32,000 nt of DNA from Sinorhizobium meliloti (GCF_017876815.1 NZ_JAGIOS010000003.1:1110001-1142000); one strand, 5' to 3'. Shown: positions 1,176 to 19,672, counted from the stretch's first letter. Notes: generated from the letters alone by a model not told the origin. Made by a program: numbers and translations.

Positions 1176-1200
1176 GGAATAGAAGCCTCTCCGTTCCGTT
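1176..1200 (+). promoter_or_regulatory. Candidate ECF-type promoter P1 (GGAATAGA-N-CCGTT) upstream of the 237-aa gene
   Basis: The sequence is GGAATAGAAGCCTCTCCGTTCCGTT: GGAAT, a spacer of exactly 16 nt, then CGTT, lying 31 nt upstream of the ATG at 1231. The same motif recurs at 2544-2568(-), 3402-3426(-) and 3947-3971(+). Confidence 0.55.
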
Positions 1201-1230
1201 ACTCCCGGGCCATTCAACGGGAGAAGCGGG

Positions 1231-1944
1231 ATGTTAAGTTTCCTGAAGAAAGATCCGCAGGTCATTCAGTTTGTCTGCCATCCGGAAGACGATGGCGTCA
1301 TCGCGCCGCCGCTACCGGCCAAATCGGTTCTGCCGGATTGGTTCCGCCGGCTGCCGGCGGTCGACAAAGGGCACCTGTCGGCAACCAACAACGGTCTGAC
1401 CGTCAAACGCTGCATGCCCTTTCTCGATGCTATGACCACCGGCTGGATTCTGCCGATCGCCGCTACGGTGCGCCTTGACGTCAAGGATGACGGCCGCAGC
1501 GTCGATGCAGGCTGGGAGTTCGACCGGGTGATGGTCAGCAACCACGGCGCCCACCAGGTGGCGGGCAATCCGAAAGAGCCCTCCCCGCCCTGCAAGTTTC
1601 ACAATTACTGGTCGATTCGCACGCCGCCGGGATGGAGTTGCCTGTTTCTGCCGCCGCTAAACCGCCCCGGACAGCACTTCGAATGTGTAGCGGGCATTGT
1701 CGATACGGACAGCTATAGCGCTCATATCCATTTTCCGTTCTTCGCGACGGCGCCGGATGGCCTTCACGTCGTCGAAAAGGGAACGCCGCTTGTACAGGTG
1801 ATACCCTTCCGCCGTGCCGATGCGGCGGTCACGGCAGAAATCCGCGCCGAAACCCGCGCGGATGCTACCGAGCGCGAGGCAATCCATCGGAACACCCTCG
1901 CCGGAGAAGGCTGGTATCGCAAGTCGGCGCGCGCCGCGCGCTAG
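1231..1944 (+). CDS. Conserved hypothetical protein, 237 aa, no signal peptide (possibly a DUF6065-type family; not verifiable here)
   Basis: Clean ORF with a GGGAGAAG SD 5 nt upstream of the ATG and GC-rich third codon positions. It is preceded by promoter motif P1. Its stop codon TAG (1942-1944) lies inside the CTAGAGC start of the dispersed repeat. Confidence 0.7.
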   Translation: MLSFLKKDPQVIQFVCHPEDDGVIAPPLPAKSVLPDWFRRLPAVDKGHLSATNNGLTVKRCMPFLDAMTTGWILPIAATVRLDVKDDGRSVDAGWEFDRVMVSNHGAHQVAGNPKEPSPPCKFHNYWSIRTPPGWSCLFLPPLNRPGQHFECVAGIVDTDSYSAHIHFPFFATAPDGLHVVEKGTPLVQVIPFRRADAAVTAEIRAETRADATEREAIHRNTLAGEGWYRKSARAAR

Positions 1945-2052
1945 AGCACTTCCAGGAAGGTACGTGGCGATTTTCCGTCCACAAGTGCATAACTTCAAAG
2001 GGTTAGAGGGCTAGAGCGTTTCATGTCTCGATGAACAGGGAAACACTCTAAA
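1941..2052 (+). repeat. Dispersed intergenic repeat, copy A (CTAGAGCACTTCCAGG...TTTTCCGTCC...CTTCAAAGGGTTAGAG...GATGAAC)
   Basis: It aligns by eye with 14318-14400 (same orientation) and with 23450-23520 and 24550-24617 (opposite orientation). It contains the hairpin GCACTT(1946-1951)/AAGTGC(1983-1988). Confidence 0.6.
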
Positions 2053-2064
2053 CGGTCCGATCAG

Positions 2065-2107
2065 ACAAGAGAGCGGGGGCCGGAATGTCCGGCCCCCGCT
2101 CTCTTGT
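2065..2107. terminator. Strong GC-rich hairpin, probably a bidirectional terminator between convergent genes
   Basis: The sequence is ACAAGAGAGCGGGGGCCGG-aatgt-CCGGCCCCCGCTCTCTTGT, a perfect stem of about 19 bp. It sits between the 237-aa gene (+) and the NSSS-repeat gene (-). Confidence 0.8.
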
Positions 2108-2131
2108 CGCACCTTCAACTTTTCCGCAATC

Positions 2132-2494
2132 TCAGCGCCCTGTGTGCCACAGCTTGCCTGGACGGTACGACCGGTCTGACCGGTTCGAGCTCGAATTGGA
2201 CGAACGATTCGAGGAGGAGTTCGACGAACTGTTCGAGGATGAATTAGAGCTCGAATTCGAGGAACTGTTGGACGAAGAGTTGGAACTCGAATTGCTGGAG
2301 GAGTTGGAACTCGAATTGGATGAGCTGTTGCCGGCGACTATGATCTCGCCGTCGGTCCGGCCCGTCTGGGCGGTTTGCGTCGAAGTGCGATCCACGCCGG
2401 GAAATAAGGGGGCATATTCCCTTGCTTCGGCCGCAGAGCCCACGAATGCCGCCAGGCCGGCAGCGATTGCCTTGTTCGTCCAGTTCTTTGCCAT
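2132..2494 (-). CDS. Small secreted Asn/Ser tetrapeptide-repeat protein (120 aa; signal peptide followed by 13 NSSS-type units)
   Basis: The start was moved to the ATG at 2494, which has an AAGGAG SD 8 nt upstream. The N-terminus MAKNWTNKAIAAGLAAFVGSAAEA looks like a Sec signal peptide with an AxA cleavage site. Promoter motif P2 lies 50 nt upstream, and the terminator hairpin lies downstream. Confidence 0.7.
   Translation of the reverse strand: MAKNWTNKAIAAGLAAFVGSAAEAREYAPLFPGVDRTSTQTAQTGRTDGEIIVAGNSSSNSSSNSSSNSSSNSSSNSSSNSSSNSSSNSSSNSSSNRSSNSSSNRSDRSYRPGKLWHTGR
2174..2329 (-). repeat. 13 tandem 12-nt (4-codon) units encoding NSSS x10, NRSS, NSSS, NRSD
   Basis: Read directly from the sequence. 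The units use different synonymous Ser and Asn codons (AGC/AGT/TCG/TCC/TCT/TCA; AAC/AAT). The repeat is therefore much more regular at the protein level than at the DNA level. Confidence 0.9.
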
Positions 2495-2543
2495 CTCATC
2501 TACTCCTTGTGAAAACCGGACCGGTTCTTCGGTCCGCAGGAGT

Positions 2544-2568
2544 AACGGCCGGTGCGCGCCTCTATTCC
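2544..2568 (-). promoter_or_regulatory. Candidate ECF-type promoter P2 upstream of the NSSS-repeat gene
   Basis: The minus strand reads GGAATAGAGGCGCGCACCGGCCGTT followed by ACTCC. P1 has the same -35 extension (GGAATAGA) and the same CCGTTACTCC -10 region. The spacer is exactly 16 nt. Confidence 0.55.
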
Positions 2569-2590
2569 ATGATCGCAATTTTTGATGCAC

Positions 2591-3376
2591 TTACCGTTGC
2601 GCACCTTGGAGTTCGCTGAGGGCTCTGGCCTCTTCCGCTGCCTCGAGCGGCGCCCCTGCATCGATCGCGGTCAGATAGGCGTCGAGCGTTTCCGTGGAAG
2701 ATGCAGGAGCATAACCGCCGGTGGCTCCGGGTGCGATGACGGCGAACGTCACGCGCCACTCTGACCCGGCGCGGCAGGCAACCGAAACCACTGTTGAGCG
2801 ATCGTCCGAGTCCAGCTCGAACTCGCGGCACAGCGCCTGCGCATTGTCACGGAATGTCGCAATCGCCCGGAAACGTTGGTCGGAACCTGGCAACCGCCGT
2901 TCCTCGCCTGCGGCGACCGTGGCGAGCGCCTCGTCAAGCGCAGGGCTGCCGATGGCGGCAACGCCCGAGCCACCCTCGATCGGCGCCTCGACACTTCCCC
3001 GCAGCCAATATCCGCCGAACCCCGCAACGACAGCCGCCAGAGAGGCGGCGACGGGAGCGAGCCATCGACTTCTGTGAGATTCGTTCGCAGCGCGGCGCGG
3101 GAAAGGCAGGATGCCCGCGCCCGATACCGAAGGTGGCGACGTCTTCTCCATCACCATTCTTTCGACCGCACGCTTGAGCTCGGAAGGTACCGGCTCATCG
3201 AGCAGCGGCTCCATAGCGGCCTTGGCCGCATGGCGCGTTTCGATGAAGAGTGCCACCCGCGCGACCAGCGCATCATCCGTTTCCATCGCTCGTTCTACTT
3301 CGGCAGCAGTCCCGGTATCGAGCTCGCCGTCGGCGAACCGCATCAGTATCTCATCCGAGAAGTCGGCTCTTGTCAT
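2591..3376 (-). CDS. Anti-sigma factor: N-terminal anti-sigma domain without a zinc motif, one TM helix, and a periplasmic domain of about 135 aa
   Basis: An ATGA overlap couples it to the sigma gene (3373-3376). The N-terminus MTRADFSDEILMRFADGELD is typical of ECF anti-sigma factors. The TM segment is WLAPVAASLAAVVAGFGGYW. Confidence 0.8.
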   Translation of the reverse strand: MTRADFSDEILMRFADGELDTGTAAEVERAMETDDALVARVALFIETRHAAKAAMEPLLDEPVPSELKRAVERMVMEKTSPPSVSGAGILPFPRRAANESHRSRWLAPVAASLAAVVAGFGGYWLRGSVEAPIEGGSGVAAIGSPALDEALATVAAGEERRLPGSDQRFRAIATFRDNAQALCREFELDSDDRSTVVSVACRAGSEWRVTFAVIAPGATGGYAPASSTETLDAYLTAIDAGAPLEAAEEARALSELQGAQR

Positions 3377-3912
3377 TCGTTTGCGCCCTTCATTGACTGA
3401 GAACGTCCGGTCGCCTGTGTTATTCCGGCAGCCTCGGCCAAACTCCTGCGTGCCCTCGCCAGTCGGCTCATGACCGTACCGATTGGAATGCCCATCACAT
3501 CGGCCGCTTCGCGATAGGATAGCTCCTCGACGCAGACCAGAAGAACCACCTCCCGCTGCTCGTCCGGCAATTCGGTGATCGCCTCCGCGACGGTCTTGAG
3601 GGTCAGCCGCGCTTCGGTTTCACGCTCGCCAGATGAACCGGCGATGTCATGACGCTCGGTGATATCGTCCTGCACGCCTGCGGTCTTCTGTCGGCGCACC
3701 TGGTCGATCCAGAGATTACGCAGGATACGGAATATCCAAGCATCAAAGCGCGTGCCCGGCTCGAAGCGCTCGGCACTGGCGAGTGCCCGCTCGCAGGCCG
3801 ACTGCACGAGATCATCGGCAACATCACGCGAGCCGCAGAGCGAGATGGCGAAGCGGCGCAGATTGGGCAGGAACGCCATGAGGCGTTCGCCGACATCTTT
3901 CACCGCATTGCT
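3373..3912 (-). CDS. ECF (sigma-70 group 4) RNA polymerase sigma factor
   Basis: Region 2 (DLVQSACERALASAERFEPGTRFDAWIFRILRNLWIDQVRR) and region 4 (LPDEQREVVLLVCVEELSYREAADVMGIPIGTVMSRLARARRSL) are both present. I prefer the ATG at 3912, which has a GGGAG SD, over the GTG at 3978, which has none. Confidence 0.9.
   Translation of the reverse strand, partial: SNAVKDVGERLMAFLPNLRRFAISLCGSRDVADDLVQSACERALASAERFEPGTRFDAWIFRILRNLWIDQVRRQKTAGVQDDITERHDIAGSSGERETEARLTLKTVAEAITELPDEQREVVLLVCVEELSYREAADVMGIPIGTVMSRLARARRSLAEAAGITQATGRSQSMKGANE
3402..3426 (-). promoter_or_regulatory. Candidate ECF-type promoter P4, located inside the 3' end of the sigma ORF and facing the anti-sigma gene
   Basis: The minus strand reads GGAATAACACAGGCGACCGGACGTT. 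The spacer is exactly 16 nt, and CGTTCT matches P3. The CGTT ends 26 nt upstream of the anti-sigma ATG at 3376. Confidence 0.5.
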
Positions 3913-3946
3913 CATCTCCCGAAACTCCGCAATTTGGCTAGAAGAG

Positions 3947-3971
3947 GGAATAGACCGACGACTCAGCCGTT
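3947..3971 (+). promoter_or_regulatory. Candidate ECF-type promoter P3 upstream of the S8 peptidase gene
   Basis: The sequence is GGAATAGACCGACGACTCAGCCGTT, with a spacer of exactly 16 nt, 87 nt upstream of the ATG at 4058. It lies in the divergent sigma/peptidase intergenic region. Confidence 0.55.
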
Positions 3972-4057
3972 CTGACACAATCTACAGGTAGCGGTCTCAT
4001 CGTCCAATGAATGCGCTATCCTCCTATGAGCGTGACCTAGCCGATTGAGGTTTTCGG

Positions 4058-5458
4058 ATGCTGACCAAGTTGAAACTGGCTCTGATCGCTCCCATTGCTG
4101 CAATCGCACTCGTATCCGGCGACATCCTGGCTCCTGGAAACATGATTGTGCGTGAAGTGATCGGAACCGGTCTCGCCTTGGCCGATGACGACGACGATGA
4201 CGGTGGGAGTGGCGGCAACCGCGGATCGGGCGGTTCCGGCCGCTCCGGCTCCTACGGCGCCGGCGCCGGATGGAGTGGCGGCAAGAGCCTGTTTCCATTC
4301 CGAGAGTTCCTGCCACGTCGAAGCATCCCGCGGCGCTCTCGCGCAGCCGCACCCGCTGCGCCGATACGAGCGCCCGATGAGATCGTCGGGCTGGGTTTCA
4401 GTCCGACGGAACTCGGCGAGTTGACAGCCACGGGCTTCGAGGTCCTCGAACGAAACACGATGACGTCATTCAACGCCGAGGTGATCAAGCTTCGCATTCC
4501 CCGCGGGCTGACTCTGGAAGCCGCTCGGCAGCGGGCGCGCGCCGCGGCCCCTCAGGCGGTGATCGACTTCAACCATTATTTCCGGCCGGAGCAGCATCGC
4601 GATGCCCCGTGCGTCACGAGCGACTGCCTGGCACGGAACGTGATCGGCTGGCCCTCGGCTCAAACGGGGCCTAGCAATTGCTCGGCCGGCGTGCGGATCG
4701 GCCTTGTCGATACGGCGATCAATCCCGATCACATCGCATTCGAGGCTCGCAACTTAGAGATCGTCCGTCTCGTCGACGAAGAATTGCCGGAGTCGGGCAG
4801 ACAGCACGGCACCGCTGTCGCGGCTTTGCTTGTCGGCTCAGCCAGTGGCCGTACGCCGGGCCTGATACCGGGTGGCAAGCTCATCGCCGTGGACGCATTT
4901 CATCGGGCGGGACGGCAAGACGACCGATCCGCCGCCTTCGATCTGGCGCGCGCACTCGACCTCCTTGCTGGGCGTCAGGTTCAGGTCATCAATCTCAGCC
5001 TTGCCGGGCCGCCCAATCTCCTGCTTGAACAGGCGGTCAAAAAGACGGGGGAGCGCGGGATCATCATGGTCGCCGCCGCGGGCAATGACGGTCCAAGAGC
5101 CGAGCCCGTCTATCCGGGTGCCTATGAAGAGGTCATTGCCGTCACCGCGACCGACAGGCGCAAACGGCCTTACCGGCGCGCCGGACGCGGAGAGCATATC
5201 GACTTCGCCGCCCCTGGCGTGGCGGTCTGGACAGCAGCCTCGGTCAGCGGCGCGCGTCCGAAGACGGGAACCTCTTTCGCCGCCCCTTTCGTGACCGCGG
5301 CGGTGGCGATGATGAAAGCATCTGAGCCGGAGCTCGCTGCGGAGATGCTCCGCGACAGGCTGACCGGACATGCCGAAGATCTCGGAGATCCGGGAAAGGA
5401 TCCTGTCTTCGGCTGGGGCTTGTTGAACGCGCGAGCGATTTGCAAGGCGAAGTCCTGA
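4058..5458 (+). CDS. Secreted S8-family (subtilisin-like) serine peptidase
   Basis: The catalytic motifs occur in D-H-S order: GLVDTAINPDH, HGTAVAALLVG, AAAGNDG (oxyanion Asn) and GTSFAAPFVTAAVAMM. The N-terminus has a hydrophobic signal-like segment followed by a DDDDDDGGSGGNRGSGGSGRSGSYGAGAG low-complexity tract. Confidence 0.9.
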   Translation: MLTKLKLALIAPIAAIALVSGDILAPGNMIVREVIGTGLALADDDDDDGGSGGNRGSGGSGRSGSYGAGAGWSGGKSLFPFREFLPRRSIPRRSRAAAPAAPIRAPDEIVGLGFSPTELGELTATGFEVLERNTMTSFNAEVIKLRIPRGLTLEAARQRARAAAPQAVIDFNHYFRPEQHRDAPCVTSDCLARNVIGWPSAQTGPSNCSAGVRIGLVDTAINPDHIAFEARNLEIVRLVDEELPESGRQHGTAVAALLVGSASGRTPGLIPGGKLIAVDAFHRAGRQDDRSAAFDLARALDLLAGRQVQVINLSLAGPPNLLLEQAVKKTGERGIIMVAAAGNDGPRAEPVYPGAYEEVIAVTATDRRKRPYRRAGRGEHIDFAAPGVAVWTAASVSGARPKTGTSFAAPFVTAAVAMMKASEPELAAEMLRDRLTGHAEDLGDPGKDPVFGWGLLNARAICKAKS

Positions 5459-5755
5459 GCTAAGCCGCTTCGTCCGGCGCAAGACGTGCATGGGAAGGGC
5501 CAAACCCACCGGCCGGCCACTCGCAACAACCGCACAATCGGCGCTGCGTGAAGACGCTGCAGCGTTGCGAGGTCGATGTGCCTAGCTTTCTTGCGGGCGC
5601 ATTGAATTGTTCGTGATCCCGTGCGACTTTCGAAACGCATAATGGGAGCCTCTTCCGTGAGGTGCTCTACGCTCACTGGCGGCCGGGCGGGTGATTATCG
5701 ACTGTCGGCCGCGTGCGGCCCAAAGCCGAATGTTTCCAAGCGAAAGGACCACGCG

Positions 5756-6229
5756 ATGGCGAAGAATACGATTTGCCTATGGTACGATAAGGACGCCGAG
5801 GCTGCCGCTCGTTTCTACTGCGAGATCTTTCCTGACAGCAGGGTGAGTGCCGTGCACCGCGCACCCGGTGACTACCCCGCGGGCAAAGAGGGCGACGTGT
5901 TGACGGTCGACTTCAGCGTTGCGGGCATTCCCTGTATCGGCCTCAACGGGGGTCCCGCATTCAAGCACAACGAGGCCTTCTCGTTTCAGATCGCCACCGA
6001 CGATCAGGAAGAAACCGACCGCTACTGGAACGCCATCGTCGGCAATGGCGGCAAGGAAAGCGCCTGCGGCTGGTGCAAGGACAAATGGGGGATTTCCTGG
6101 CAGATCACTCCGCGCGTGCTGACCGACGCGATGGCGGCCGGCGGCGACGAAGCAAAGCGGGCGTTCACGGCGATGATGGACATGAAAAAAATAGACGTCG
6201 CTGCAATCGAGGCGGCGCGGCGCGGTTGA
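5756..6229 (+). CDS. VOC/glyoxalase-superfamily protein (PhnB-like, 3-demethylubiquinone-9 3-methyltransferase-domain family)
   Basis: The start was moved to MAKNTICLWYDKDAEAAARFY. The signature ACGWCKDKWGISWQI is typical of this family. Confidence 0.85.
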   Translation: MAKNTICLWYDKDAEAAARFYCEIFPDSRVSAVHRAPGDYPAGKEGDVLTVDFSVAGIPCIGLNGGPAFKHNEAFSFQIATDDQEETDRYWNAIVGNGGKESACGWCKDKWGISWQITPRVLTDAMAAGGDEAKRAFTAMMDMKKIDVAAIEAARRG

Positions 6230-6305: not shown

Positions 6306-8495
6306 CTAGAAGGAGGTTCCTTGGGCCTTGTCTGTGCCAAGAAGCTGACGAAGTGAATTCTTCGACATCGGCCTGGACAAATGGAATCCCTGCAATTCGT
6401 CACAGCCCAGCTTGCGCAGGATCTCGCTCTGCTCCTCGGTTTCCACGCCTTCGGCGGTGATGCGCAGGCCTTTCGCACGTGCGATGCCGACGATGGACTG
6501 CACGACCGCCACACCACCACCGGGCCGGTCGAAGGCGTGGACGAAAGAGCGATCGATTTTGATCCGGTCGACCTCCAGGCGCTGCAACCGCCCAAATGAA
6601 GAGAATCCCGTACCGAAATCGTCAAGTGCGAACTTGACGCCGAACTCGCGTAGTGCCGTGATGTTTTTTTCGCAGACGCCGGCTTCGTCAAGGAGAGCAG
6701 TTTCGGTGATCTCGAGCTCCAGTCTCGACGGCTCGATCCCGAACTGGCGCAGCAGTGAGAGAACTTGAGCAGCATAATGGCGCTGTGCAAGCTCGACCGC
6801 CGAGACGTTGACTGCAATGTCGAGACCCGGAAATTCACGCGCGGTAGAACAGGCTTCCTTCAGCACGAACGCGCCGAGCCGATCGATGAGGCCGGCAGTC
6901 TCCGCAAGCGGAACGAAGGCATCCGGTGCTATAGGGCCTTTGCTCGGATGCCGCCAGCGAATGAGAGCTTCCAGCGAGCTTATCTCGTGCGACTGCGCAG
7001 AATATACGGGCTGATAGAAGACTTCGAGCTGATTGCCGGCGTCCAGCGCCGCACGCAGATCCTGTTCCAGGTCCCGTTTCGTTCTGATCAGGTCGTCCAT
7101 ATGAGGACCAAAGACTGCGTAGCGGTTCCGCCCGGCCGATTTGGCGTGGTAAAGCGCGATATCGGCCTTCCGCGTGATCTCGATGGGGTCGGCGTCATTT
7201 CCGGTCGCGACCGCCACACCTATCGAAAGCCCGATGAGAATGGGCTGTCCGTCTATCTCGAAAGGTCGGCGGATTGCAGCGATCAGCGCGTCACAGAGTT
7301 TCTCCACCTCGTCCTGGCGGGTACGCGCGACGATGATGGTAAACTCATCACCACCAATTCTGGAAATCGCGGCACCAGCAGCGGTTTCCTTAAGCCGCTT
7401 CGCGACCTCGACCATCAGCCGATCGCCAACGGGATGGCCGAGTGTGTCGTTCACTTGCTTGAAGCGGTCGAGATCGAGATACAGAAGAGCATTGGCTTGA
7501 TCGATTGTCGACGTCGCGACGACCCGCGCCAGCAACCGGTTGAAAGACGCACGGTTGGCGAGCCCGGTCAACGGATCGTGACGCGCCAGATGGTCGAGCT
7601 CCGCCTGGCTTTCCTGCAGGCGTCTCGACCGCCTCCGCAGTACGACACTGAGCGCGCTCGTGAGGGCAAAAAGGAGGGCGCCGGCGACGAGAAGCACAGG
7701 CGCCGTGGCCTTCATCACATCGGCACCGGGTCTGAACGGGAGCCAGGAGAAATATCCTATCGTTTCTCGGGATGATGAAACGATCGGAGCATAGGACCGC
7801 TGTCGACCGAGTTCCGGCAAAACAGAAAAGCGCAGGTCCTCAAAGCCATAATCGTCACCGAGATGCGTCAGGAAATCGCCGTCGAGAAAACGGACCGCTA
7901 AGTGGAGATATTCCCTGCCGGGCTCCTGAACAATATCACCGGTGTCCGACACGATCGGCTTCACGCTGATAATCGCCGGGCGGCCCGCGATGCGTACGAG
8001 ATCGCTCTCGCCGATGGACAGCACCTGCTCACTCGTTCCTCCCTCGTCGCCTGCTGCGAGCCGCTCTTGCAGCTTGGCGATGAGCGGCATTGCTTCGGGT
8101 CCTATGTTGCTGAAAGCTTCCTGCTCGTTGGTCTGGCCGGCAAGAAAGGCGTATAACGGCTTACGATCCGGACTGATCACGAATGCGCCGTCGTGTCGGA
8201 AATAGCTGTTCATCCAGCTACCCAGGTTAGAATCGACCCACCGCGGATCCCATTCCTGCGACACTTTTCTGACGGCGTCATCCCAAACGGTGGCACTCTC
8301 CTGATCATGGGCGATGCTACCTTGCATCTTGGAGATGACAAGCTCGACGAGGTGTTGCTGCCGCTTCACCGCCAAAGCGTCCGATTGCTGCGCCGACCAG
8401 CGGACGGCCAGGTATATGCCTCCCATCAAGGCCATTGCGATGGCCAAGGGCAGCATCCACCTGAAAACCGCGACTTTGCCAGCCACAAACCTCAT
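6306..8495 (-). CDS. Membrane-bound GGDEF-EAL protein (diguanylate cyclase/phosphodiesterase) with a periplasmic CHASE4-like sensor
   Basis: RIGGDEFTII (GGDEF) and LEALIRW (EAL) are both intact. Two TM segments flank a sensor region of about 240 aa. The start was set at the ATG at 8495, which has an AGGAGGAG SD 6 nt upstream. Confidence 0.9.
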   Translation of the reverse strand: MRFVAGKVAVFRWMLPLAIAMALMGGIYLAVRWSAQQSDALAVKRQQHLVELVISKMQGSIAHDQESATVWDDAVRKVSQEWDPRWVDSNLGSWMNSYFRHDGAFVISPDRKPLYAFLAGQTNEQEAFSNIGPEAMPLIAKLQERLAAGDEGGTSEQVLSIGESDLVRIAGRPAIISVKPIVSDTGDIVQEPGREYLHLAVRFLDGDFLTHLGDDYGFEDLRFSVLPELGRQRSYAPIVSSSRETIGYFSWLPFRPGADVMKATAPVLLVAGALLFALTSALSVVLRRRSRRLQESQAELDHLARHDPLTGLANRASFNRLLARVVATSTIDQANALLYLDLDRFKQVNDTLGHPVGDRLMVEVAKRLKETAAGAAISRIGGDEFTIIVARTRQDEVEKLCDALIAAIRRPFEIDGQPILIGLSIGVAVATGNDADPIEITRKADIALYHAKSAGRNRYAVFGPHMDDLIRTKRDLEQDLRAALDAGNQLEVFYQPVYSAQSHEISSLEALIRWRHPSKGPIAPDAFVPLAETAGLIDRLGAFVLKEACSTAREFPGLDIAVNVSAVELAQRHYAAQVLSLLRQFGIEPSRLELEITETALLDEAGVCEKNITALREFGVKFALDDFGTGFSSFGRLQRLEVDRIKIDRSFVHAFDRPGGGVAVVQSIVGIARAKGLRITAEGVETEEQSEILRKLGCDELQGFHLSRPMSKNSLRQLLGTDKAQGTSF

Positions 8496-8586
8496 CCGCA
8501 CTCCTCCTGATAGGCTGCTCATCAATGAGCTGAACGTCTTAAAACGCCGTAAGTAAGCTCCGCACGTGCCGGCGTCATCTTATGAT

Positions 8587-11201: not shown

Positions 11202-11807
11202 ATGAGAACTGTAACAGGGCTCTTTGATGACTATGGCGATGCTCGCGAAGCCGTAAGCGATCTGGAAGCGGCAGGCGTACCTTCGGATGACATCAGCATT
11301 GTCGCGAACAACATTGGCGATCGATACTCCACCGATGGCTCGAACGCGGCGGAAGGCGCGGGTACCGGAGCCGGCCTAGGCGCTGCCGGGGGCGGCGTTG
11401 TCGGTCTTCTGACGGGGCTCGGTCTGATGGCCATCCCTGGGGTCGGCCCCGTAGTGGCTGCCGGGTGGCTTGCCTCCACTGCGGCCGGCGCTGCGGCGGG
11501 CGCAATCGCCGGTGGGGCAGCCGGAGGCCTGATCGGTGCACTGACGGAATCCGGGGTTGATGAAGAAGACGCCCATGTTTACGCCGAGGGCGTTCGCCGG
11601 GGGGGCACGTTGGTCACAGCAAGGGTCGAGGACAGTGTTGCACCACGAGCAGAAGCGATCCTGAAACAGCGGAAAATCGTGGACCCAGCGGCCCGCAGGA
11701 GCATCTATGCCCAGGAAGGATGGTCGCGATTTGACGAAAATGCCGACCCGTACACGCTCGATCAGGTCGATCGAGAGCGGGAGCGGTACCGCAGCATGAT
11801 GCCGTAA
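11202..11807 (+). CDS. General stress protein (YflT/GsiB-17M-like domains flanking a Gly/Ala-rich membrane segment)
   Basis: GGGAGAA SD. The N-terminal region is TVTGLFDDYGDAREAVSDLEAAGVPSDDISIVAN, and a second related domain reads EEDAHVYAEGVRRGGTLVTARV. A central glycine-zipper-like stretch separates them. Confidence 0.8.
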   Translation: MRTVTGLFDDYGDAREAVSDLEAAGVPSDDISIVANNIGDRYSTDGSNAAEGAGTGAGLGAAGGGVVGLLTGLGLMAIPGVGPVVAAGWLASTAAGAAAGAIAGGAAGGLIGALTESGVDEEDAHVYAEGVRRGGTLVTARVEDSVAPRAEAILKQRKIVDPAARRSIYAQEGWSRFDENADPYTLDQVDRERERYRSMMP

Positions 11808-11917
11808 CGGCTGGCTTACGTCCCGCCGATGCGAGGGCGCGAGGACGGCCCGCCCTGCCGCCAGCGCTGAAGCATCGACTCAAATGGTGGCGCGCCCCAT
11901 GTCCCCTTGGGGCGTGC

Positions 11918-12205
11918 TTATTTGATCTTCAGAAGTAGCATCTTGCCGGCCATGGTGATGCCGTGAGCCGACTCCTCTGGCGGAACATCCGTATTCAGCG
12001 CTTTCACGAGCCTGTGGTCGCGCAGCTCGTTGAGAGTTGCGGTCGTCAGGAACTTGATCTTCTGAGGCCGTTCCTTGAAGCGGTCCTGTTTTGCATAGGT
12101 GACTTGAGCATTCAGGTGCGTCCATCTCTTCCCCGCCTGAGGATGGACGTCGCCGTCCTTAGCGAGCTTCAGACCGCGGATCTGGGTTGGCGTCAATTCA
12201 ATCAT
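11918..12205 (-). CDS. Hypothetical 95-aa protein, translationally coupled to the desaturase gene
   Basis: A TAATG overlap joins the desaturase stop and this ORF's ATG, sharing base 12205. Third codon positions are GC-rich. A hairpin, CGCCCCA-N8-TGGGGCG (11893-11914), lies just downstream. Confidence 0.55.
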   Translation of the reverse strand: MIELTPTQIRGLKLAKDGDVHPQAGKRWTHLNAQVTYAKQDRFKERPQKIKFLTTATLNELRDHRLVKALNTDVPPEESAHGITMAGKMLLLKIK

Positions 12206-13272
12206 TACTTCGTCTTTCGTCCATCTTCAGTAAGGGAGCGGCGCAGCGACCCAGCGGCGTCGTGGAATGAAACTAGCCTCCGGCGCCGGTCGTCCCAGAG
12301 CACGAGCCTGACGCATTTGAGGCTGTCCCACAGGGTGATCCGACCGATGCCGGCAAGTTGCGGATGGTCACGCAGTACTTCCGGCAGACGGTAGTACGGA
12401 ATCCGGCTGGACAGGTGGTGCACGTGATGGATGCCGATATTGCCAGTGAGCCACCGCAGCACCGGCGGAAGATCGTAATGCGAGGCGCCATGCAGCGCCG
12501 CCTGGGGAAACCGCCAATCCTCGCCCGCCGACCAGTGGGTCTCCTCGAACTGGTGCTGCACATAAAAGAGCCAAACGCCGGCTGCACCTGCGAGCAGCAC
12601 GACCGGAAGATGGATCAGGAGAAACGTTCCCAAACCGACGGCCCAAACCATCAAGGCGGCCAGCGTGACGATCGCAAAATTCGTCGCCATGGTCGAAATC
12701 CATGGCAGAGCACCCGAGTTCATCATTCCGAACGGCAGGCGCTGCTTGAACAGAAAGAGCCAGGCCGGCCCGATCCCGAACATGACAAGCGGGTGCCGGT
12801 ACAGCCGGTAGCCGAGGCGTTTGATCGGCGAAAGGGCACAGTATTCGGTAATCGTCAGCGTGGTGATGTCACCAACCCCGCGTTCGTCGAGATTACCTGC
12901 AGTCGCATGATGGGCGGCATGCGCACGCCTCCAATAATCGTAAGGGGTCAGGGTCAGGACCCCGAGCAGGCGGCCGGTCCAGTCATCGAGCCCACGACGG
13001 GAGAAAAACGAGCCGTGGCCGCAATCGTGCTGGATCATGAACAATCGGAGCAGAAAGGCGCTGGCAGGAAGGATTGCAATCAGCCCGGGCCAGAAGCCGT
13101 TGGCCAGCGAAAAGCAGGCCGCTGCCCAGAAGATGGCGAAAGGGACGAGAGTGACGAACAGTTCGAAGGCGCTACGCCCCAGGCGGGGCTGCCGGTATTT
13201 AGCCAGCGTCTTCAACCACGCTCCAGCATTGTCTTCAACGAGTGAAGCGGGTGGATAGACATGTGCGCTCAT
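12205..13272 (-). CDS. Membrane fatty-acid desaturase (three histidine boxes)
   Basis: The three histidine boxes are HDCGH, WRRAHAAHH and GIHHVHH. The start was set at the ATG at 13272 (MSAHVY...), because the longer ORF overlaps the upstream gene. Confidence 0.85.
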   Translation of the reverse strand: MSAHVYPPASLVEDNAGAWLKTLAKYRQPRLGRSAFELFVTLVPFAIFWAAACFSLANGFWPGLIAILPASAFLLRLFMIQHDCGHGSFFSRRGLDDWTGRLLGVLTLTPYDYWRRAHAAHHATAGNLDERGVGDITTLTITEYCALSPIKRLGYRLYRHPLVMFGIGPAWLFLFKQRLPFGMMNSGALPWISTMATNFAIVTLAALMVWAVGLGTFLLIHLPVVLLAGAAGVWLFYVQHQFEETHWSAGEDWRFPQAALHGASHYDLPPVLRWLTGNIGIHHVHHLSSRIPYYRLPEVLRDHPQLAGIGRITLWDSLKCVRLVLWDDRRRRLVSFHDAAGSLRRSLTEDGRKTK

Positions 13273-13357
13273 TATAACCGGTCCGTTTTTCGCTCGCCCC
13301 GCGATCCTCCGCCAGGGCAACAGCTGCGCCCGTGGATCGGGTGCAGGTGTTGAAGTG

Positions 13358-13738
13358 TTACGCCCTACGGGCCTTGCGGGCGGCGTAACGGCGATCACGC
13401 TCTGCCTTGCGGGCCGCCTCGTCCGCCACGACGCGCGAGACCCGATTGGCGATTTCTGCCTGGCGGGCTTCGGCTTCAGCCCTTTGCTCGGCCTCGGCGG
13501 CCGCGGCCGACGCAGCGGCTTCTGCCAGGATTCGCTCGTTCTCGGCGGTCTTCAGCGCTTCGCGCTCGGCACGGCGGGCATCCCTGGCACGGCTAGCCGC
13601 TTCACGAGCAGCCAGTTTTTCCCGCATTTCAGGGTCGGTCGGCTTGGGAGCGGATGCAAATTTTGTCAGGAGCTGACGCTTTGCATCTGCTGCGGCATTG
13701 CGTCGTTCGGCAAAGCCGTTGTCGCTCGGGTGTCTCAA
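13358..13738 (-). CDS. Ala/Arg/Glu-rich coiled-coil protein (DUF6481-like)
   Basis: TTG start with an AAGGAA SD about 7 nt upstream. The composition is highly charged and helical (AAREAASRARDARRAEREALKTAENERILAEAAA...). Confidence 0.7.
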   Translation of the reverse strand: MRHPSDNGFAERRNAAADAKRQLLTKFASAPKPTDPEMREKLAAREAASRARDARRAEREALKTAENERILAEAAASAAAAEAEQRAEAEARQAEIANRVSRVVADEAARKAERDRRYAARKARRA

Positions 13739-13775
13739 TCGTTATTCCTTCGAATCGTTTGGTCGCGTAGAATGG

Positions 13776-13803
13776 GAAAAGGCCAGACATTCGCCTGGCC
13801 TCT
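13776..13803 (-). terminator. Rho-independent terminator of cspA
   Basis: The minus strand reads AGGCCAG-gcgaatgt-CTGGCCT followed by TTTCCC. It lies 55 nt downstream of the cspA stop codon. Confidence 0.6.
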
Positions 13804-13858
13804 TCGAACCTCTTGCCGCGATGCCAGTACATCCGTGGTCATCAGCGGCGAAAAAGCA

Positions 13859-14068
13859 TCAGGCAGCGCGCAGCTGGCCTGCGGACATCTTGCCCGACTT
13901 ATTGTCGCGCTCGAGCTCAAAGCCGAGCTTCTGACCTTCGACAATCGAATTCATGCCGGCGCGTTCAACAGCAGAGATGTGAACGAACACATCGGCGCTG
14001 CCGTCGTCAGGCGCGATGAAACCGAAGCCCTTGGTGGAATTGAACCATTTAACTGTGCCAGTGGTCAT
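13859..14068 (-). CDS. cspA: Cold-shock protein (CspA family, 69 aa)
   Basis: [34 protein letters not shown] carries the RNP1 and RNP2 motifs. An AAGAAAGGG SD precedes the start. Confidence 0.95.
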
Positions 14069-14206
14069 AACGAACCCTTTCTTAGCAACATAGATCACCG
14101 CTGGGCGACGCACAGCGGGGTTTCGACTTTTGAGAGAGGGAAGTTCGTCAAGAGACGCGCAAAGCGCAGCAAAACAAATATCGGCAAACAAAGTATCGAT
14201 GCCCTT

Positions 14207-14234
14207 TCATAGACGAGAGCGGCGGCCACGTCAA
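14207..14234 (-). promoter_or_regulatory. Candidate housekeeping-type promoter of cspA with a long 5' UTR
   Basis: The minus strand reads TTGACG-N16-CTATGA, close to the rhizobial CTTGAC-N17-CTATAT consensus. It would give a leader of about 130 nt, as is typical for cspA genes. Confidence 0.4.
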
Positions 14235-14317
14235 CTTTTTGTTTCCAGAAAAGTCGAATACAACTAAGGATAGCAGATCCGAAGGGTTACGTTCGTTCCC
14301 TGCCGGGGCATGCGCGG

Positions 14318-14400
14318 TTAGAGCACTTCCAGGTGTAACGGTTTTCCGTCCGGAAATGCACAGCTTCAAAGATTAGAGCGTTCCTTGTTAGATGAACGCG
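14318..14400 (+). repeat. Dispersed intergenic repeat, copy B
   Basis: The sequence is GTTAGAGCACTTCCAGG...TTTTCCGTCCGGAAATGCACAGCTTCAAAGATTAGAGCGTTCC..GATGAAC. The hairpin arms are 14323-14333 and 14350-14359. Confidence 0.6.
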
Positions 14401-14681
14401 GCGTGCGTACCGAAAGTCGGCAAACGAGCTGAGTATACCGCTACGCTTCGACGCTTTTTCAACTAACTAACGTCACAGTCTCCTATCCGGCGTAAAAAGG
14501 AAATTCAGGTATGTCAAAATATTCCTTGTATTTTTACCCAACGTTTTGCGCGAAGTTCGGACACTAATTTCACGTCACGCCCAGCTTCGAATAATATTTC
14601 TTGGCACCTCTATTAATCGCGCGCTGGCGATGCTATTTAGGAGTTGCAGCCGCCCTATACGCTGGCCGCAGAAAGAATCCC

Positions 14682-16681
<2,000 letters not shown>

Positions 16682-16754
16682 GAGCAGCGCCTGAACCGTC
16701 CGGCCGGGTGGCCAGGCGGCGAAACTCGAACAACGACGGACGGGGAGACTTCCA

Positions 16755-17144
16755 GTGGCCATGCAGAACAGCAAGACGTCAATCACCCAGCAATTTGGCA
16801 GCTACAAGCCATCCAAGGCGATCCTCGTATGGGCGTGCGTCGCCACGGCAGCCGCGACGATGATCGTCGGCTTCAACTGGGGCGGGTGGGTGACCGGCGG
16901 CACGTCTCGCACAGCGGCAGCGGCCGCAGCCGACATTGCACGCGGCGAACTGGCATCCGCCATATGCGTCGAGCGGTTTAACGCCGCCCCGGACGCGGCC
17001 GCAAAACTGATCGAGTTCAAGGCAATCACTGACGGTTACAAGAAGCGTCAATTCGTGGAGGCCGGCGGTTGGGCGACGATGCCGGGCGAGACCGCACCCG
17101 ACAGCCGCAGCGTTCAAGGTTGCGCCACCGCTCTCGCCATCTGA
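16755..17144 (+). CDS. Hypothetical membrane-anchored protein (start GTG 16755 or ATG 16761)
   Basis: GGGGAGA SD at 16742-16748. It has one TM helix (AILVWACVATAAATMIVGFNWGGW) and coding-like codon usage. Confidence 0.5.
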   Translation: MAMQNSKTSITQQFGSYKPSKAILVWACVATAAATMIVGFNWGGWVTGGTSRTAAAAAADIARGELASAICVERFNAAPDAAAKLIEFKAITDGYKKRQFVEAGGWATMPGETAPDSRSVQGCATALAI

Positions 17145-17214
17145 GGGCAAAGCATGAAAAGCGCTCCGGTGTTGGTTTGGAGCGCTCCCAATTATCAGAT
17201 CAGGAGAACGTCAA

Positions 17215-17382
17215 ATGATTCGTTTCGAGAGAAAGCCCGATCCGCAGCCCTCGCTGAAGGAAGCCGAAAACAAACGTACCAAGCAAATAAGCGAAGCCGC
17301 GAAGGAAGAGAACAAGAAATCGGGCACAACTGGAGCGCCGCGTCGCGCGCCTCAAGCGGCTGATGACGACCGGCTCATTTGA
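17215..17382 (+). CDS. Possible 55-aa charged small protein (below the ORF-track cutoff)
   Basis: An AGGAGA SD lies 7 nt upstream of the ATG at 17215. The product is MIRFERKPDPQPSLKEAENKRTKQISEAAKEENKK.... A 9-bp GC hairpin follows at 17414-17436. It competes with the 69-aa ORF at 17154-17363 in another frame. Confidence 0.3.
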   Translation: MIRFERKPDPQPSLKEAENKRTKQISEAAKEENKKSGTTGAPRRAPQAADDDRLI

Positions 17383-17413
17383 GAGCATATTGGACGCCTC
17401 GGCCGTTTCTCAT

Positions 17414-17436
17414 TGGCCCGCCCCTACGGCGGGCCA
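17414..17436 (+). terminator. GC-rich hairpin (possible terminator or attenuator; no U-tract)
   Basis: The sequence is TGGCCCGCC-cctac-GGCGGGCCA. Confidence 0.3.
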
Positions 17437-17471
17437 GCTTCATCAAATTCAACGTCAAGAGGATCGCATCG

Positions 17472-17615
17472 ATGGCTAAAGGACAAGTGAGAGGCAACCG
17501 CGAGGCGCGGAAGCCGAAAAAGGAAAAGGCGCCGGTGAAGGTAGAGACGAGCTTCACCAATCAGCTCAAGAATGCCGAGAAAAGCAGCCCACAGGGTGGC
17601 AAACACAAAGGCTGA
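17472..17615 (+). CDS. Small basic protein, 47 aa (MAKGQVRGNREARKPKKEKAPVK...)
   Basis: The internal ATG has an AAGAGGA SD about 9 nt upstream. The Lys/Arg-rich N-terminus resembles small conserved alphaproteobacterial proteins as I remember them. Confidence 0.5.
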   Translation: MAKGQVRGNREARKPKKEKAPVKVETSFTNQLKNAEKSSPQGGKHKG

Positions 17616-17666
17616 GCCCAAGGGAACGGCGGTGGCGCTGGAAGACTTCGGAGCCGAGTGCAACGG

Positions 17667-18194
17667 CTATTTTGGCGCTGCGGCCGCGGTTTCGCCCGGT
17701 GGCAAGATCCTGAACATAAAGGTTGATACCTTTTCCCCTGGCTTAAACGGGCCCGGCACCTGATGGCTTACCGGCTTCAGGCTTTGAAGGAATGCTGCAA
17801 TTGCGCCTGCGTCTTCTTTTGTGAGTTGCGCAAATGCGTGCCACGGCATGATCGGCGCCAGCATGCGGCCGTCGGGGCGCTGCCCGGTCTGAATGGCAGT
17901 CACAATCTGCTCCCTAGTCCAGCTGCCGATGCCGGTCTCCTTGTCGGGCGTGATGTTGCGACCGATGAAAACACCCTCCCCGGGAATTTCGAAGCCTACA
18001 TCCGACCCGCCGAGAAAGCGTGAGCTGTCCGGCTTTCCGAAAAAATATCCCGGTGTGTGGCAGTCGTTGCAGCCGCCCATTGTGACGAGATATTCCCCTC
18101 GCGCAATTGCGGGATCGTCGGCAGCGGCCCCGAGAGGCTGTAGCCCAAAAGCAGAGGTGGCGAAACATGCGAACCCAATGCCCAACCGAAACAT
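17667..18194 (-). CDS. Periplasmic mono-haem c-type cytochrome
   Basis: The signal peptide is MFRLGIGFACFATSAFG. There is a single CNDCH haem-binding motif and a distal PIMPW Met. Confidence 0.85.
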   Translation of the reverse strand: MFRLGIGFACFATSAFGLQPLGAAADDPAIARGEYLVTMGGCNDCHTPGYFFGKPDSSRFLGGSDVGFEIPGEGVFIGRNITPDKETGIGSWTREQIVTAIQTGQRPDGRMLAPIMPWHAFAQLTKEDAGAIAAFLQSLKPVSHQVPGPFKPGEKVSTFMFRILPPGETAAAAPK

Positions 18195-18419
18195 GCTTAC
18201 CTCCCTGAGGCTCGCTGCTGAAGCAAACTGAATATCATAACGGCGTTGCCCTATATATTAGTCATTTTGAATTATCGGGAAGTCGACGAATCTTCCCTTT
18301 GGCTCATACTGACGGAGGTCGCACCAATCGGCGACCACCTCCTCGGAAAGTGTGGCCAGTAGGGCGCTCCTGAGCCAGCGCCTGCAGCGCCTTTGCGATA
18401 ACAAATTACGATGTCGTAG

Positions 18420-18758
18420 CTAATGTTGCTGGCCAATAGGCGACAAGAGCGCCTGCTTCAATTGCTGGCGTACCTCATCAGGCTGCTCCAGCAGCGCAGT
18501 CGCGAGTGTTCTAAGCTCCCGCCTCAGCCCATAGAGCTGATCCAGCAGCGCAAGGATGATCGGCACAGCGTCATCGTTGACGTTCATGTCGCGCCGGAGT
18601 TCACAAACCAGGCGGATGCGAGCGACGTCGACGTCGTCAAATGAGGGCCCGCGCTCGCCTTGAGCCGGCACGATCCAGCCGCTGTGCACCCACTGGCGCA
18701 GCTGTTTGCGGGTTACAATGTCGAACTGTTCAAGGACTTGCCTCTCCGTCAATTTCAT
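18420..18758 (-). CDS. cbpM: Chaperone modulator CbpM (MerR-like HTH)
   Basis: An ATGA overlap couples it to the upstream DnaJ-like gene. The sequence pattern FDDVDVARIRLVCELRRDMNVNDDAVPIILALLDQLYGLRRELR is CbpM-like. Confidence 0.8.
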   Translation of the reverse strand: MKLTERQVLEQFDIVTRKQLRQWVHSGWIVPAQGERGPSFDDVDVARIRLVCELRRDMNVNDDAVPIILALLDQLYGLRRELRTLATALLEQPDEVRQQLKQALLSPIGQQH

Positions 18759-19672
18759 GTGGTCCTCCCTAGAGCCTCGCGCGGGTCATAAGCGTGGCTC
18801 CGCCGCCACGTTTCCATGAATCGCTCGAGATCGGGATCGGTCGCCGTCGGCAGAACGACCTTCAGCGTAACACGCTGATCCCCGGCGGGGCCGTGTTGCG
18901 ACTTCACCCCTTTGCCCCTCAGACGCAGGATGTCGCCCGTATTTGAACCCTTAGGGATGGTCATCGATACGCGGCCGGAGATCGTCGGCACTTCGATCTT
19001 TGCACCAAGCACAGCTTCATAAAGCGTAATTGGCAGATCTATTTCGATGTCGTTGCCTTCACGGCGGAAGACCGAGTGAGAACGGACACTAATTTCGATT
19101 AAGGCATCTCCGGGTTCCCCGCCAGCAATCCCCGGCGTCCCCTTGCCCCTCAGCCGCAGCGTGCTGCCATCACGTGTCCCAGCAGGAATGGCTAAGTCGA
19201 GCGTGTTACCGTCGGGAAAGGTGATGCGGCGTCGGGCGCCGTTTACCGCGTCCAGGAACTCGAGTTCGAGGTGATAATGACGGTCCTGCCCACGCGCCTT
19301 GAAACGGCCCCCTGCCCCGCCCTGCCCGAAAAGATCCGCGAAGATGTCCGACACATCTTCGAATTCACCAGTTCCGCCCGCTGATCCATACCGCCGTGCG
19401 TGGTCTGCATCGGCGTAGTGCCTGTAAAAGTGCTGCTGCGGCCGTTCAGCCCCCGATGCATCGATCTCGCCCCGGTCGAACCGGGCCCGCTGCTCGGGAT
19501 CGCTCAGCAAATGGTAGGCTGCGGAAAGCGCCTTGAATTTGGTTTCCACCTCCTTGTCGCCTGGATGGAGATCTGGGTGCAGCTCCTTTGCGCGCTTGCG
19601 GTAGGCTTTGCGGATCTCATCCGGTTTGCCGGTACGCGGAACGCCGAGTATCTGATAGGGATCATCAGTCAC
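18755..19672 (-). CDS. cbpA: Curved-DNA-binding DnaJ-family co-chaperone CbpA (J domain plus two C-terminal domains, no zinc finger)
   Basis: The J domain DPYQILGVPRTGKPDEIRKAYRKRAKELHPDLHPGD carries the HPD motif. The start was set at the GTG at 19672, which has a GGAGG 7 nt upstream. Confidence 0.85.
   Translation of the reverse strand: MTDDPYQILGVPRTGKPDEIRKAYRKRAKELHPDLHPGDKEVETKFKALSAAYHLLSDPEQRARFDRGEIDASGAERPQQHFYRHYADADHARRYGSAGGTGEFEDVSDIFADLFGQGGAGGRFKARGQDRHYHLELEFLDAVNGARRRITFPDGNTLDLAIPAGTRDGSTLRLRGKGTPGIAGGEPGDALIEISVRSHSVFRREGNDIEIDLPITLYEAVLGAKIEVPTISGRVSMTIPKGSNTGDILRLRGKGVKSQHGPAGDQRVTLKVVLPTATDPDLERFMETWRRSHAYDPREALGRTT

Follow-up and report, generated by a model that had tools for sequence, protein, structure and literature searches.

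The four copies of the bipartite element GGAAT-N16-CGTT found around an ECF sigma factor gene in the stretch of Sinorhizobium meliloti DNA analysed here (the window, 32 kb) are promoters read by the sigma factor RpoE6, and the best explanation, which we hold to be almost certainly correct, is that the RpoE6 regulon of megaplasmid pSymA has its four strong local promoters here. This is a correct but ordinary finding, and it carries little weight as a discovery, since papers of 2013 and 2018 had already described the regulon together with its motif and transcription starts. The locus is 100% identical to pSymA of S. meliloti SM11 over 4.5 kb, and strain 2011 carries the same sequence at each of the four motifs. 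Its genes are rpoE6 (SMa0143), ecfR6 (SMa0144), SMa0142, SMa0148 and the unannotated SMa_ORF_1. The sites of SMa0148, ecfR6 and SMa0142 are mapped promoters in Table 1 of Lang et al. 2018 (PMC6180224), which includes starts from 5'-RACE, and the promoter strings given there for these three genes occur verbatim in the window.

An exact pattern search of both strands of the whole 32-kb window recovers the element at 1176-1200 (+), 2544-2568 (-), 3402-3426 (-) and 3947-3971 (+), with no fifth exact match. The coordinates and sequences quoted in an earlier, sequence-only reading are thus borne out, as is its remark that no further copy was seen, which is true for the exact pattern within the window. 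That reading had also described an extended -35 element shared by three sites, pairwise agreement after the spacer, and a start codon 25-90 nt downstream of each copy. All three descriptions hold: GGAATAGA is common to three sites, CCGTTACTCC is present after the spacer in two sites and CGTTCT in the other two, and the start codons, confirmed at 1231, 2494, 3376 and 4058, lie 30, 49, 25 and 86 nt past the last T of CGTT. Its further claim that the repeats are not due to chance agrees with 100 dinucleotide-preserving shuffles, in which the chance level was 0.27 against the four observed and no shuffle reached four. Each of the four sites combines a GGAATA -35 with a GT-containing -10, the combination that characterizes ECF26 target promoters. 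A relaxed scan of the window adds a weaker site, TTGAAT-N16-CGAC at 5603-5627 (+), 5' of SMa0139, and a few intragenic near-matches that are chance-like in appearance.

The rpoE6 gene (3373..3915, minus strand) encodes a protein of 180 aa, in which Pfam profiles detect only Sigma70_r2 (E = 8e-17) and Sigma70_r4_2 (E = 4e-17), i.e. the sigma-2 plus sigma-4 architecture of ECF sigma factors. It also scores above the TIGR02937 sigma70-ECF cutoff, and was placed in group ECF26 by ECFfinder (Lang 2018, PMC6180224). The start of ecfR6 (2591..3376, minus strand) overlaps the rpoE6 stop codon (ATGA). Its product of 261 aa, the membrane anti-sigma factor named EcfR6 in Lang 2018, shows a weak N-terminal zf-HC2 match (E = 0.0085, below cutoff) and NCBIfam anti-sigma matches that are likewise below cutoff, and a single hydrophobic segment can be read from its sequence at about residues 105-125. 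The RpoE6-dependent ecfR6 promoter (3402..3426, minus strand), an exact match identical to the string in Lang 2018 Table 1, is situated within the 3' end of the rpoE6 ORF, where GGA ATA encodes Gly-Ile and CGT encodes Arg; this third site drives the anti-sigma gene only, with a start at window position 3393. The promoter mapped for rpoE6 is of a different type, namely the sigma-70-like TTGGAC-N17-TAGATT (3979..4007, minus strand; start at 3971), whose string is given in Lang 2018 Table 1 and is termed RpoD/RpoH-like in the footnote of that table (PMC6180224). Arranged back to back with the overlapping SMa0142 promoter, it is conserved in other Sinorhizobium and in one related locus.

Upstream of SMa0148, the RpoE6-dependent promoter (1176..1200, plus strand) consists of the -35 element GGAATAGA, a 16-nt spacer and the -10 element CGTT, and is an exact match that reproduces the Lang 2018 string. 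Transcription appears to begin at window position 1212, about 12 nt past CGTT, if the strings in Table 1 are taken to end at the start. The gene (1231..1944, plus strand) encodes a protein of 237 aa belonging to the DUF6065 family (Pfam PF19541, E = 4e-9), the name that PGAP also gives it, and the motif is encountered in the matching position 5' of DUF6065 genes in 14 other species. A permissive Pfam scan of this protein revealed nothing further, comparison of the DUF6065 profile with PDB sequences gave nothing below E = 0.6, and an AlphaFold2 prediction based on 26 close homologues was unusable (mean pLDDT 43). A perfect 21-bp inverted repeat (2064..2108; 100% complementary, folding energy -50.9 kcal/mol, z = -8.4) separates SMa0148 from the convergent NSSS-repeat gene and is likely to function as a bidirectional terminator. 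A simple sigma-70/terminator scan missed both this hairpin and the rpoE6 promoter, and Rfam searches recovered no RNA family in the window.

The NSSS-repeat gene (2132..2494, minus strand), a conserved intact ORF of 120 aa, is SMa_ORF_1 of Schlüter et al. 2013 (PMC3616915), where it was predicted as a new ORF that has a transcription start of its own. Its promoter, GGAATAGA-N-CGTT (2544..2568, minus strand), is again an exact match, and the published start SMa_TSS0230 (NC_003037 position 80344; PMC3616915) falls at window position 2536, 8 nt after CGTT, with agreement of the first transcribed bases (CGG). The protein comprises a signal peptide, a conserved DGxIIVAGN segment, the (NSSS)n repeat and a basic tail. 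The minus-strand ORF is intact and retains the signal peptide in 9 of 9 species examined, a Shine-Dalgarno sequence is present 5' of it in the species inspected, and the motif occupies the corresponding position past the anti-sigma gene in 15 loci. RefSeq/PGAP records place the SMa0146 CDS opposite this conserved, promoter-linked and signal-peptide-bearing gene, i.e. the public annotation has the wrong strand for SMa0146. In Lang 2018 (PMC6180224), the probe set for SMa0146 and the 5'-RACE primers were also aimed at the strand opposite the NSSS gene; hence the RpoE6 dependence of the NSSS transcript is indirect, and the NSSS promoter is absent from Table 1 of that paper because SMa0146 was taken as a gene of the other strand. 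Codon-position periodicity cannot settle the strand, as the third codon positions of the overlapping frames coincide.

The fourth RpoE6-dependent promoter (3947..3971, plus strand), an exact match also present in Lang 2018 Table 1, precedes SMa0142 (4058..5458, plus strand), which encodes an S8 (subtilisin-like) serine peptidase (Pfam Peptidase_S8, E = 3e-34). The peptidase has a hydrophobic segment at the N-terminus and a low-complexity region rich in Asp and Gly. The SMa0142 start, found by both methods (Lang 2018 Table 1, PMC6180224), is SMa_TSS0227 (Schlüter et al. 2013, PMC3616915) at window position 3980, 9 nt past CGTT; the first bases (ATC) agree and the leader is 78 nt long. The degenerate fifth RpoE6 promoter recovered by the relaxed scan (5603..5627, plus strand) is the SMa0139 promoter of Lang 2018 Table 1; its spacer is unlike that of strain 2011, but both hexamers are retained. 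SMa0139 (5756..6229, plus strand) encodes a VOC/glyoxalase-superfamily protein (Pfam PF06983, E = 1e-49; VOC family protein in PGAP), and is a weaker RpoE6 target.

To assess conservation, a check that the sequence-only reading had itself proposed, we compared 52 loci of other species encoding an RpoE6 orthologue (489 kb) with 28 paralogue loci (277 kb). The motif recurs at matching relative positions in the former, with 113 exact matches as against two in the paralogue loci; these matches cluster at the same four positions, their spacers are unrelated, and the base following GGAAT is A in 99 of 102 orthologous sites. The promoter inside the sigma ORF has been kept across many genera, being present in exact form in 33 and in relaxed form in 43 of the 52 loci, with the reading frame unchanged throughout. 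The spacer of this internal promoter contains the stop codon of the sigma gene in Rhodobacterales; the internal -35 is retained with either a coding or a non-coding spacer. The divergent, SMa0142-type site is exact in 22 and relaxed in 43 of 49 loci, and in most of the 52 loci tblastn searches locate an S8 gene adjacent to the sigma gene, divergently oriented in nearly all cases. As the motif fixes only nine bases and CG-containing words abound in this GC-rich genome, it could be argued that the four matches arose by chance, or are remnants of duplicated or mobile sequence devoid of promoter function. Against this, none of the shuffles attained the observed count, the unrelated spacers of the four window sites indicate that they are not copies of each other, dozens of species have sites at the same positions, and published starts lie 8-9 nt downstream. 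With starts mapped and sites conserved, this explanation is refuted and its probability is negligible.

Upon RpoE6 overexpression, in a strain that still carried its anti-sigma factors, the log2 induction was 6.5 for SMa0148, the strongest RpoE6 target, 3.6 for ecfR6, 4.7 for SMa0142, 2.3 for SMa0146 and 2.6 for SMa0139 (Lang 2018, PMC6180224); rpoE6 was supplied from a plasmid in these experiments, so the array was blind to positive rpoE6 autoregulation. These published data uphold the proposal that the elements are ECF-type promoters through which the adjacent sigma/anti-sigma pair governs a local regulon, but they contradict the notion that it is self-contained, as about 40 genes respond to RpoE6 and 27 of the 40 are also targets of the general stress sigma factor RpoE2 (PMC6180224). 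Two other parts of the proposal need amendment: within the pair the motif belongs to ecfR6 and not to rpoE6, with its mapped sigma-70/RpoH-like promoter, and the four exact local sites are joined by the degenerate one preceding SMa0139. A strain lacking all ECF sigma factors, RpoE6 included, formed a nitrogen-fixing symbiosis and was wild-type-like in most culture phenotypes tested (Lang 2018, PMC6180224).

The shared targets and the resemblance between the RpoE6 and RpoE2 consensus motifs (Lang 2018, PMC6180224) could imply that the sites are in fact promoters of RpoE2 (EcfG type, ECF15), and that the neighbouring sigma gene is coincidental. The RpoE2 consensus GGAAC-N16-CGTT is only one base off, with identical -10 and spacing, and an unrelated copy of it is present in the window at 23259-23283. 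However, at all four sites the fifth base is T rather than C and is followed by A, giving the GGAATA signature of ECF26; in Data Set S1 the local genes are entered solely under RpoE6, and across genera the motif accompanies the RpoE6 orthologue, making the attribution to RpoE2 highly improbable. Alternatively, RpoE1 or RpoE4, paralogous sigma factors of group ECF26 whose promoters likewise have a GGAATA -35, might be the main readers of the sites, the RpoE6 effect being cross-talk. SMa0142 does respond slightly to RpoE4 (log2 0.7), and a heterologous ECF26 promoter is activated by both RpoE6 and RpoE4, but RpoE6 elicits much stronger responses (4.7 to 6.5), CGTCT or GTCT stands in place of CGTT in the Table 1 promoters of RpoE1 and RpoE4 (Lang 2018, PMC6180224), and the exact motif is nearly absent from the paralogue loci. 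Thus, it is very unlikely that these paralogues are the principal readers.

Under the favoured explanation, RpoE6 would direct RNA polymerase to GGAATA(G/A)-N15/16-CGTT, with the RpoE6-RNA polymerase probably recognizing the sites directly and transcription beginning 8-9 nt past CGTT (about 12 nt at SMa0148). The four promoters would drive SMa0148, the secreted NSSS-repeat protein, ecfR6 and SMa0142, a weaker fifth would drive SMa0139, and rpoE6 would be transcribed from its sigma-70-like promoter. An envelope signal might free RpoE6 from EcfR6 in the membrane; once active, RpoE6 would raise its own inhibitor, with no evident matching promoter for rpoE6, a configuration suggestive of negative feedback. 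It is because the ecfR6 promoter lies inside rpoE6, and the rpoE6 promoter is sigma-70-like, that RpoE6 is predicted to lift its inhibitor but not evidently itself. An extension to the S8-linked ECF26 branch of alphaproteobacteria, combining this wiring with a set of outputs, is tentative and in our estimate somewhat doubtful. In this branch the sigma gene may lack an ECF promoter, with the internal Gly-Ile (GGAATA) promoter serving the anti-sigma gene only, in a pure negative feedback. The conserved outputs may be the S8 peptidase, the DUF6065 protein and a small secreted protein with a low-complexity repeat (NSSS, SN, Gly-rich or Asp-rich), and the repeat protein could be a substrate or partner of the S8 peptidase.

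A candidate leader structure, in which the pyrimidine-rich ACTCC/TCTCC element past CGTT complements the Shine-Dalgarno sequence of the NSSS and DUF6065 genes, was rejected because of little covariation, a weak within-locus energy gain and the location of the element upstream of the mapped starts. For the NSSS set, RNAalifold recovered only four outer pairs (two compensatory sequences), for the DUF6065 set it recovered none, and leader duplexes were barely better within than between loci (-9.0 vs -7.3 and -9.8 vs -8.6 kcal/mol). The element is generic anti-Shine-Dalgarno-like composition or a part of the promoter.

The analysis illustrates that a real ECF regulon can be recovered from raw sequence, and its practical residue is the misplaced strand of SMa0146 in RefSeq/PGAP records. 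The conserved promoter inside the sigma ORF also offers a clean test case for ECF wiring based on negative feedback only, as synonymous changes in the Gly-Ile and Arg codons would abolish the promoter and leave RpoE6 unaltered.

Among known systems, the RpoE6/EcfR6 regulon of S. meliloti Rm1021 (PMC6180224, PMC3616915) is the same locus, of which the present DNA is a strain variant. Genes, promoter strings, starts and overexpression targets are alike and nothing essential differs, the present strain having two fewer NSSS units and a different SMa0139 promoter spacer. The locus shares with group ECF26 the GGAATA -35, the spacer of about 16 nt, the GT-containing -10 and a downstream co-oriented gene for a putative single-pass anti-sigma factor. 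Within this group the RpoE6 subgroup is set apart by CGTT in place of the CGTCT of RpoE1 and RpoE4, and by its divergent S8 peptidase, where ECF26s1 has a catalase and cytochrome b561 context. EcfG/RpoE2 (ECF15, GGAAC-N16-CGTT) has a nearly identical bipartite motif and partly overlapping S. meliloti targets, but its fifth -35 base is C where the RpoE6 sites have T, and it is controlled by NepR/PhyR partner switching. Membership in ECF15 is contradicted by GGAAT at all four sites and by the lack of NepR or PhyR genes at the locus, where the PhyR_sigma2 Pfam match falls within the sigma-2 region of RpoE6 itself. Like RsiW of the Bacillus subtilis SigW/RsiW system, EcfR6 appears to be a single-pass anti-sigma factor with a cytoplasmic sigma-binding N-terminus, and some similarity between the C-terminal domains of the two has been noted (Lang et al. 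2018, PMC6180224). RsiW is removed by regulated proteolysis, a route of activation that is hypothetical for EcfR6. Furthermore, sigW is autoregulated together with rsiW from a single upstream promoter in B. subtilis, whereas ecfR6 is served by a separate promoter within the sigma ORF.

Exact searching of the window for GGAAT-N16-CGTT returns four matches, at 1176-1200 (+), 2544-2568 (-), 3402-3426 (-) and 3947-3971 (+), with the positions and sequences reported in the sequence-only reading. These sites, numbered 1 to 4 in this order, span 2.8 kb around the ECF sigma factor gene rpoE6 (SMa0143; 3373-3915, -), and each faces a gene with a start codon 25-86 nt downstream: the DUF6065 protein SMa0148 (1231-1944, +), a secreted NSSS-repeat protein (2132-2494, -), the anti-sigma factor EcfR6 (SMa0144; 2591-3376, -) and the S8 peptidase SMa0142 (4058-5458, +). 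The shared -35 element GGAATAGA and the common sequences CCGTTACTCC or CGTTCT after the spacer likewise hold. The mean chance expectation for the window is 0.27 matches, and 0 of 100 dinucleotide-preserving shuffles reached four. The neighborhood also encodes a GreA-like transcription elongation factor (568-1050, -) and the VOC family protein SMa0139 (5756-6229, +). Compared with pSymA of Sinorhizobium meliloti strains, the region shows 100% identity to SM11 and 96-99% to many others. Stress-type genes are abundant in the surrounding pSymA sequence (11202-19861), coding for a YflT-domain protein, a Cpn60/GroEL paralogue, a DnaJ-like protein and a fatty acid desaturase.

The reading of these sites as ECF-type promoters of a local regulon is supported by published promoters, start sites and inductions. 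Lang et al. (2018, PMC6180224) mapped start sites and overexpressed, one by one, all 11 ECF sigma factors of S. meliloti; the promoter strings that their Table 1 gives for SMa0148, ecfR6 and SMa0142 are identical to three of the four sites. They placed RpoE6 in group ECF26, with motifs said to fit the ECF26 consensus (-35 GGAATA, -10 GT), and reported log2 inductions of 6.5 for SMa0148, 3.6 for ecfR6, 4.7 for SMa0142, 2.3 for SMa0146 and 2.6 for SMa0139. Schlüter et al. (2013, PMC3616915) recorded SMa_TSS0227 at NC_003037 position 78900 (-) and SMa_TSS0230 at 80344 (+), the latter as the start of a newly predicted SMa_ORF_1 (80386-80772). Subtracting NC_003037 coordinates from 82880, a conversion under which the ends of rpoE6 and SMa0142 agree, puts these starts at window positions 3980 and 2536, respectively 9 nt past the CGTT of site 4 and 8 nt past that of site 2, with agreeing first bases (ATC and CGG). 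At the sites whose start coordinates could be checked, starts thus fall within the predicted 6-10 nt, and the Table 1 strings and mapped starts together mean that experimental support is already on record for all four sites. The idea of a self-contained regulon fails, as about 40 genes respond to RpoE6, including rpoH2 and the rpoE4 and sorT operons, and 27 of them are common to the general stress sigma factor RpoE2 (PMC6180224).

Relaxed scanning of the window adds a few intragenic near-matches and one further site of weight, TTGAAT-N16-CGAC at 5603-5627 (+). At this SMa0139 promoter both elements are kept and about half of the 16-nt spacer is unlike strain 2011; since the published SMa_sRNA_10 promoter of Rm1021 is the reverse complement of the same stretch, that promoter may differ in the window's strain. 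A GGAAT-N17-CGTT match at 7889-7914 (-), within a CHASE4-GGDEF-EAL gene (6306-8525, -), is probably due to chance. A PAS/HWE histidine kinase gene (20608-23169, -) has a GGAAC-N16-CGTT site of the RpoE2/EcfG type ~90 nt upstream, at 23259-23283 (-); this probably corresponds to the SMa0113/0114 pair, which was reported to depend on RpoE2 (PMC3616915).

The motif is also conserved at related loci, a point that the sequence-only reading had left to comparison. Our sample comprised 80 loci from different species, each encoding an RpoE6 relative; 52 also encode an S8 peptidase and/or an EcfR6 homologue, and the other 28 represent more distant paralogues. The 52 RpoE6-type loci contain 113 exact matches in 489 kb versus ~4 expected, and the paralogue loci 2 in 277 kb. 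The matches gather at the same four relative positions: facing the S8 gene and divergent from the sigma gene, inside the sigma gene (~490 nt in), just past the anti-sigma gene, and before the DUF6065 gene. Orthologous sites have unrelated spacers, and A follows GGAAT in 99 of 102 of them; the pattern across species is that of a conserved promoter rather than a repeated element.

The motif does not precede the sigma gene itself; the mapped rpoE6 start at 3971 (-) is instead preceded by TTGGAC-N17-TAGATT, a promoter termed RpoD/RpoH-like by Lang et al. (PMC6180224) and kept in other Sinorhizobium. This sigma-70-like promoter (3971-4007) and the RpoE6-dependent one of SMa0142 (start 3980, +) overlap in back-to-back orientation, and their transcripts therefore share ~10 nt in antisense. 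Occupation of one promoter could occlude the other. Site 3 lies within the last rpoE6 codons, where region 4.2 ends with Gly-Ile (GGA ATA) and CGT encodes an Arg. The intervening residues vary freely in Rhizobiales, and in Rhodobacterales the sigma-gene stop codon falls inside the spacer, yet both -35 and -10 are retained. This internal promoter is exact in 33 of the 52 loci and present in relaxed form in 43, whereas a motif on the same strand ahead of the sigma gene is found at 6 (exact) or 11 (relaxed) of 49 loci, mainly those devoid of the internal one. Such an arrangement would provide negative feedback via the anti-sigma factor, with a sigma gene devoid of an evident ECF-type promoter.

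Public annotation (SMa0146 in Rm1021; PGAP in CP140920, as a hypothetical protein) has a TTG-initiated plus-strand CDS at 2196-2585, antisense to the NSSS-repeat ORF, and this is also the strand that Lang et al. addressed with their 5'-RACE primers (PMC6180224). The minus-strand ORF, preferred in the sequence-only reading, is the better gene on several grounds: it is unbroken in 9 of 9 species examined, encodes a signal peptide and a conserved DGxIIVAGN segment ahead of (NSSS)n, shows in the leaders read a ribosome-binding site of the AAGGAG type, and is directly preceded by the conserved motif; the opposite ORF is broken in two species. The annotated CDS thus probably sits on the wrong strand. 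The minus-strand ORF corresponds, after coordinate conversion, to SMa_ORF_1, and had been proposed earlier by Schlüter et al. (PMC3616915). Strains differ in the copy number of its 12-bp repeat coding for (NSSS)n (2184-2330): the protein has 120 aa in the window, as in strain ml56, and reaches 128 aa in strain 2011. A perfect 21-bp inverted repeat at 2064-2108 (-50.9 kcal/mol, z = -8.4), 24 nt beyond the ORF and common to the convergent SMa0148, is likely a bidirectional terminator; it was missed by a simple terminator scan because it lacks a T-run.

For DUF6065, modeling gave no usable structure and no PDB relative was found. In other species the motif precedes further secreted low-complexity proteins, rich in SN, Gly or Asp, as well as DCC1-like oxidoreductases, an α/β hydrolase, a glycerate kinase, a DASS-type transporter, an HTTM-domain protein and an RTX protein. 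That the regulon output is exported and envelope-directed is a reasonable guess, no more. The small secreted proteins from other genera (SN-, Gly- or Asp/Gly-rich) include those at the comparison loci L016 (7252), L022 (7557), L025 (6066), L027 (471), L031 (7197), L009 (8225) and L017 (8105), and several have, past the signal peptide, a DPxxRFLxxxF-like segment resembling FPFREFLPR in the N-terminal region of the window's S8 peptidase. The DCC1-like thiol-disulfide oxidoreductase genes lie behind the motif in four species, and in Salipiger it precedes an HTTM/vitamin-K-carboxylase-like gene (L007, 2624; L025, 6534; L030, 7531; L031, 7665; L036, 8724, for both types); these observations suggest further lineage-specific regulon members.

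The literature already covers the RpoE6 system, and what is added here is incremental: the motif is conserved across genera, the promoter within the sigma ORF is maintained independently of coding, and annotation on the wrong strand persists for the NSSS gene.
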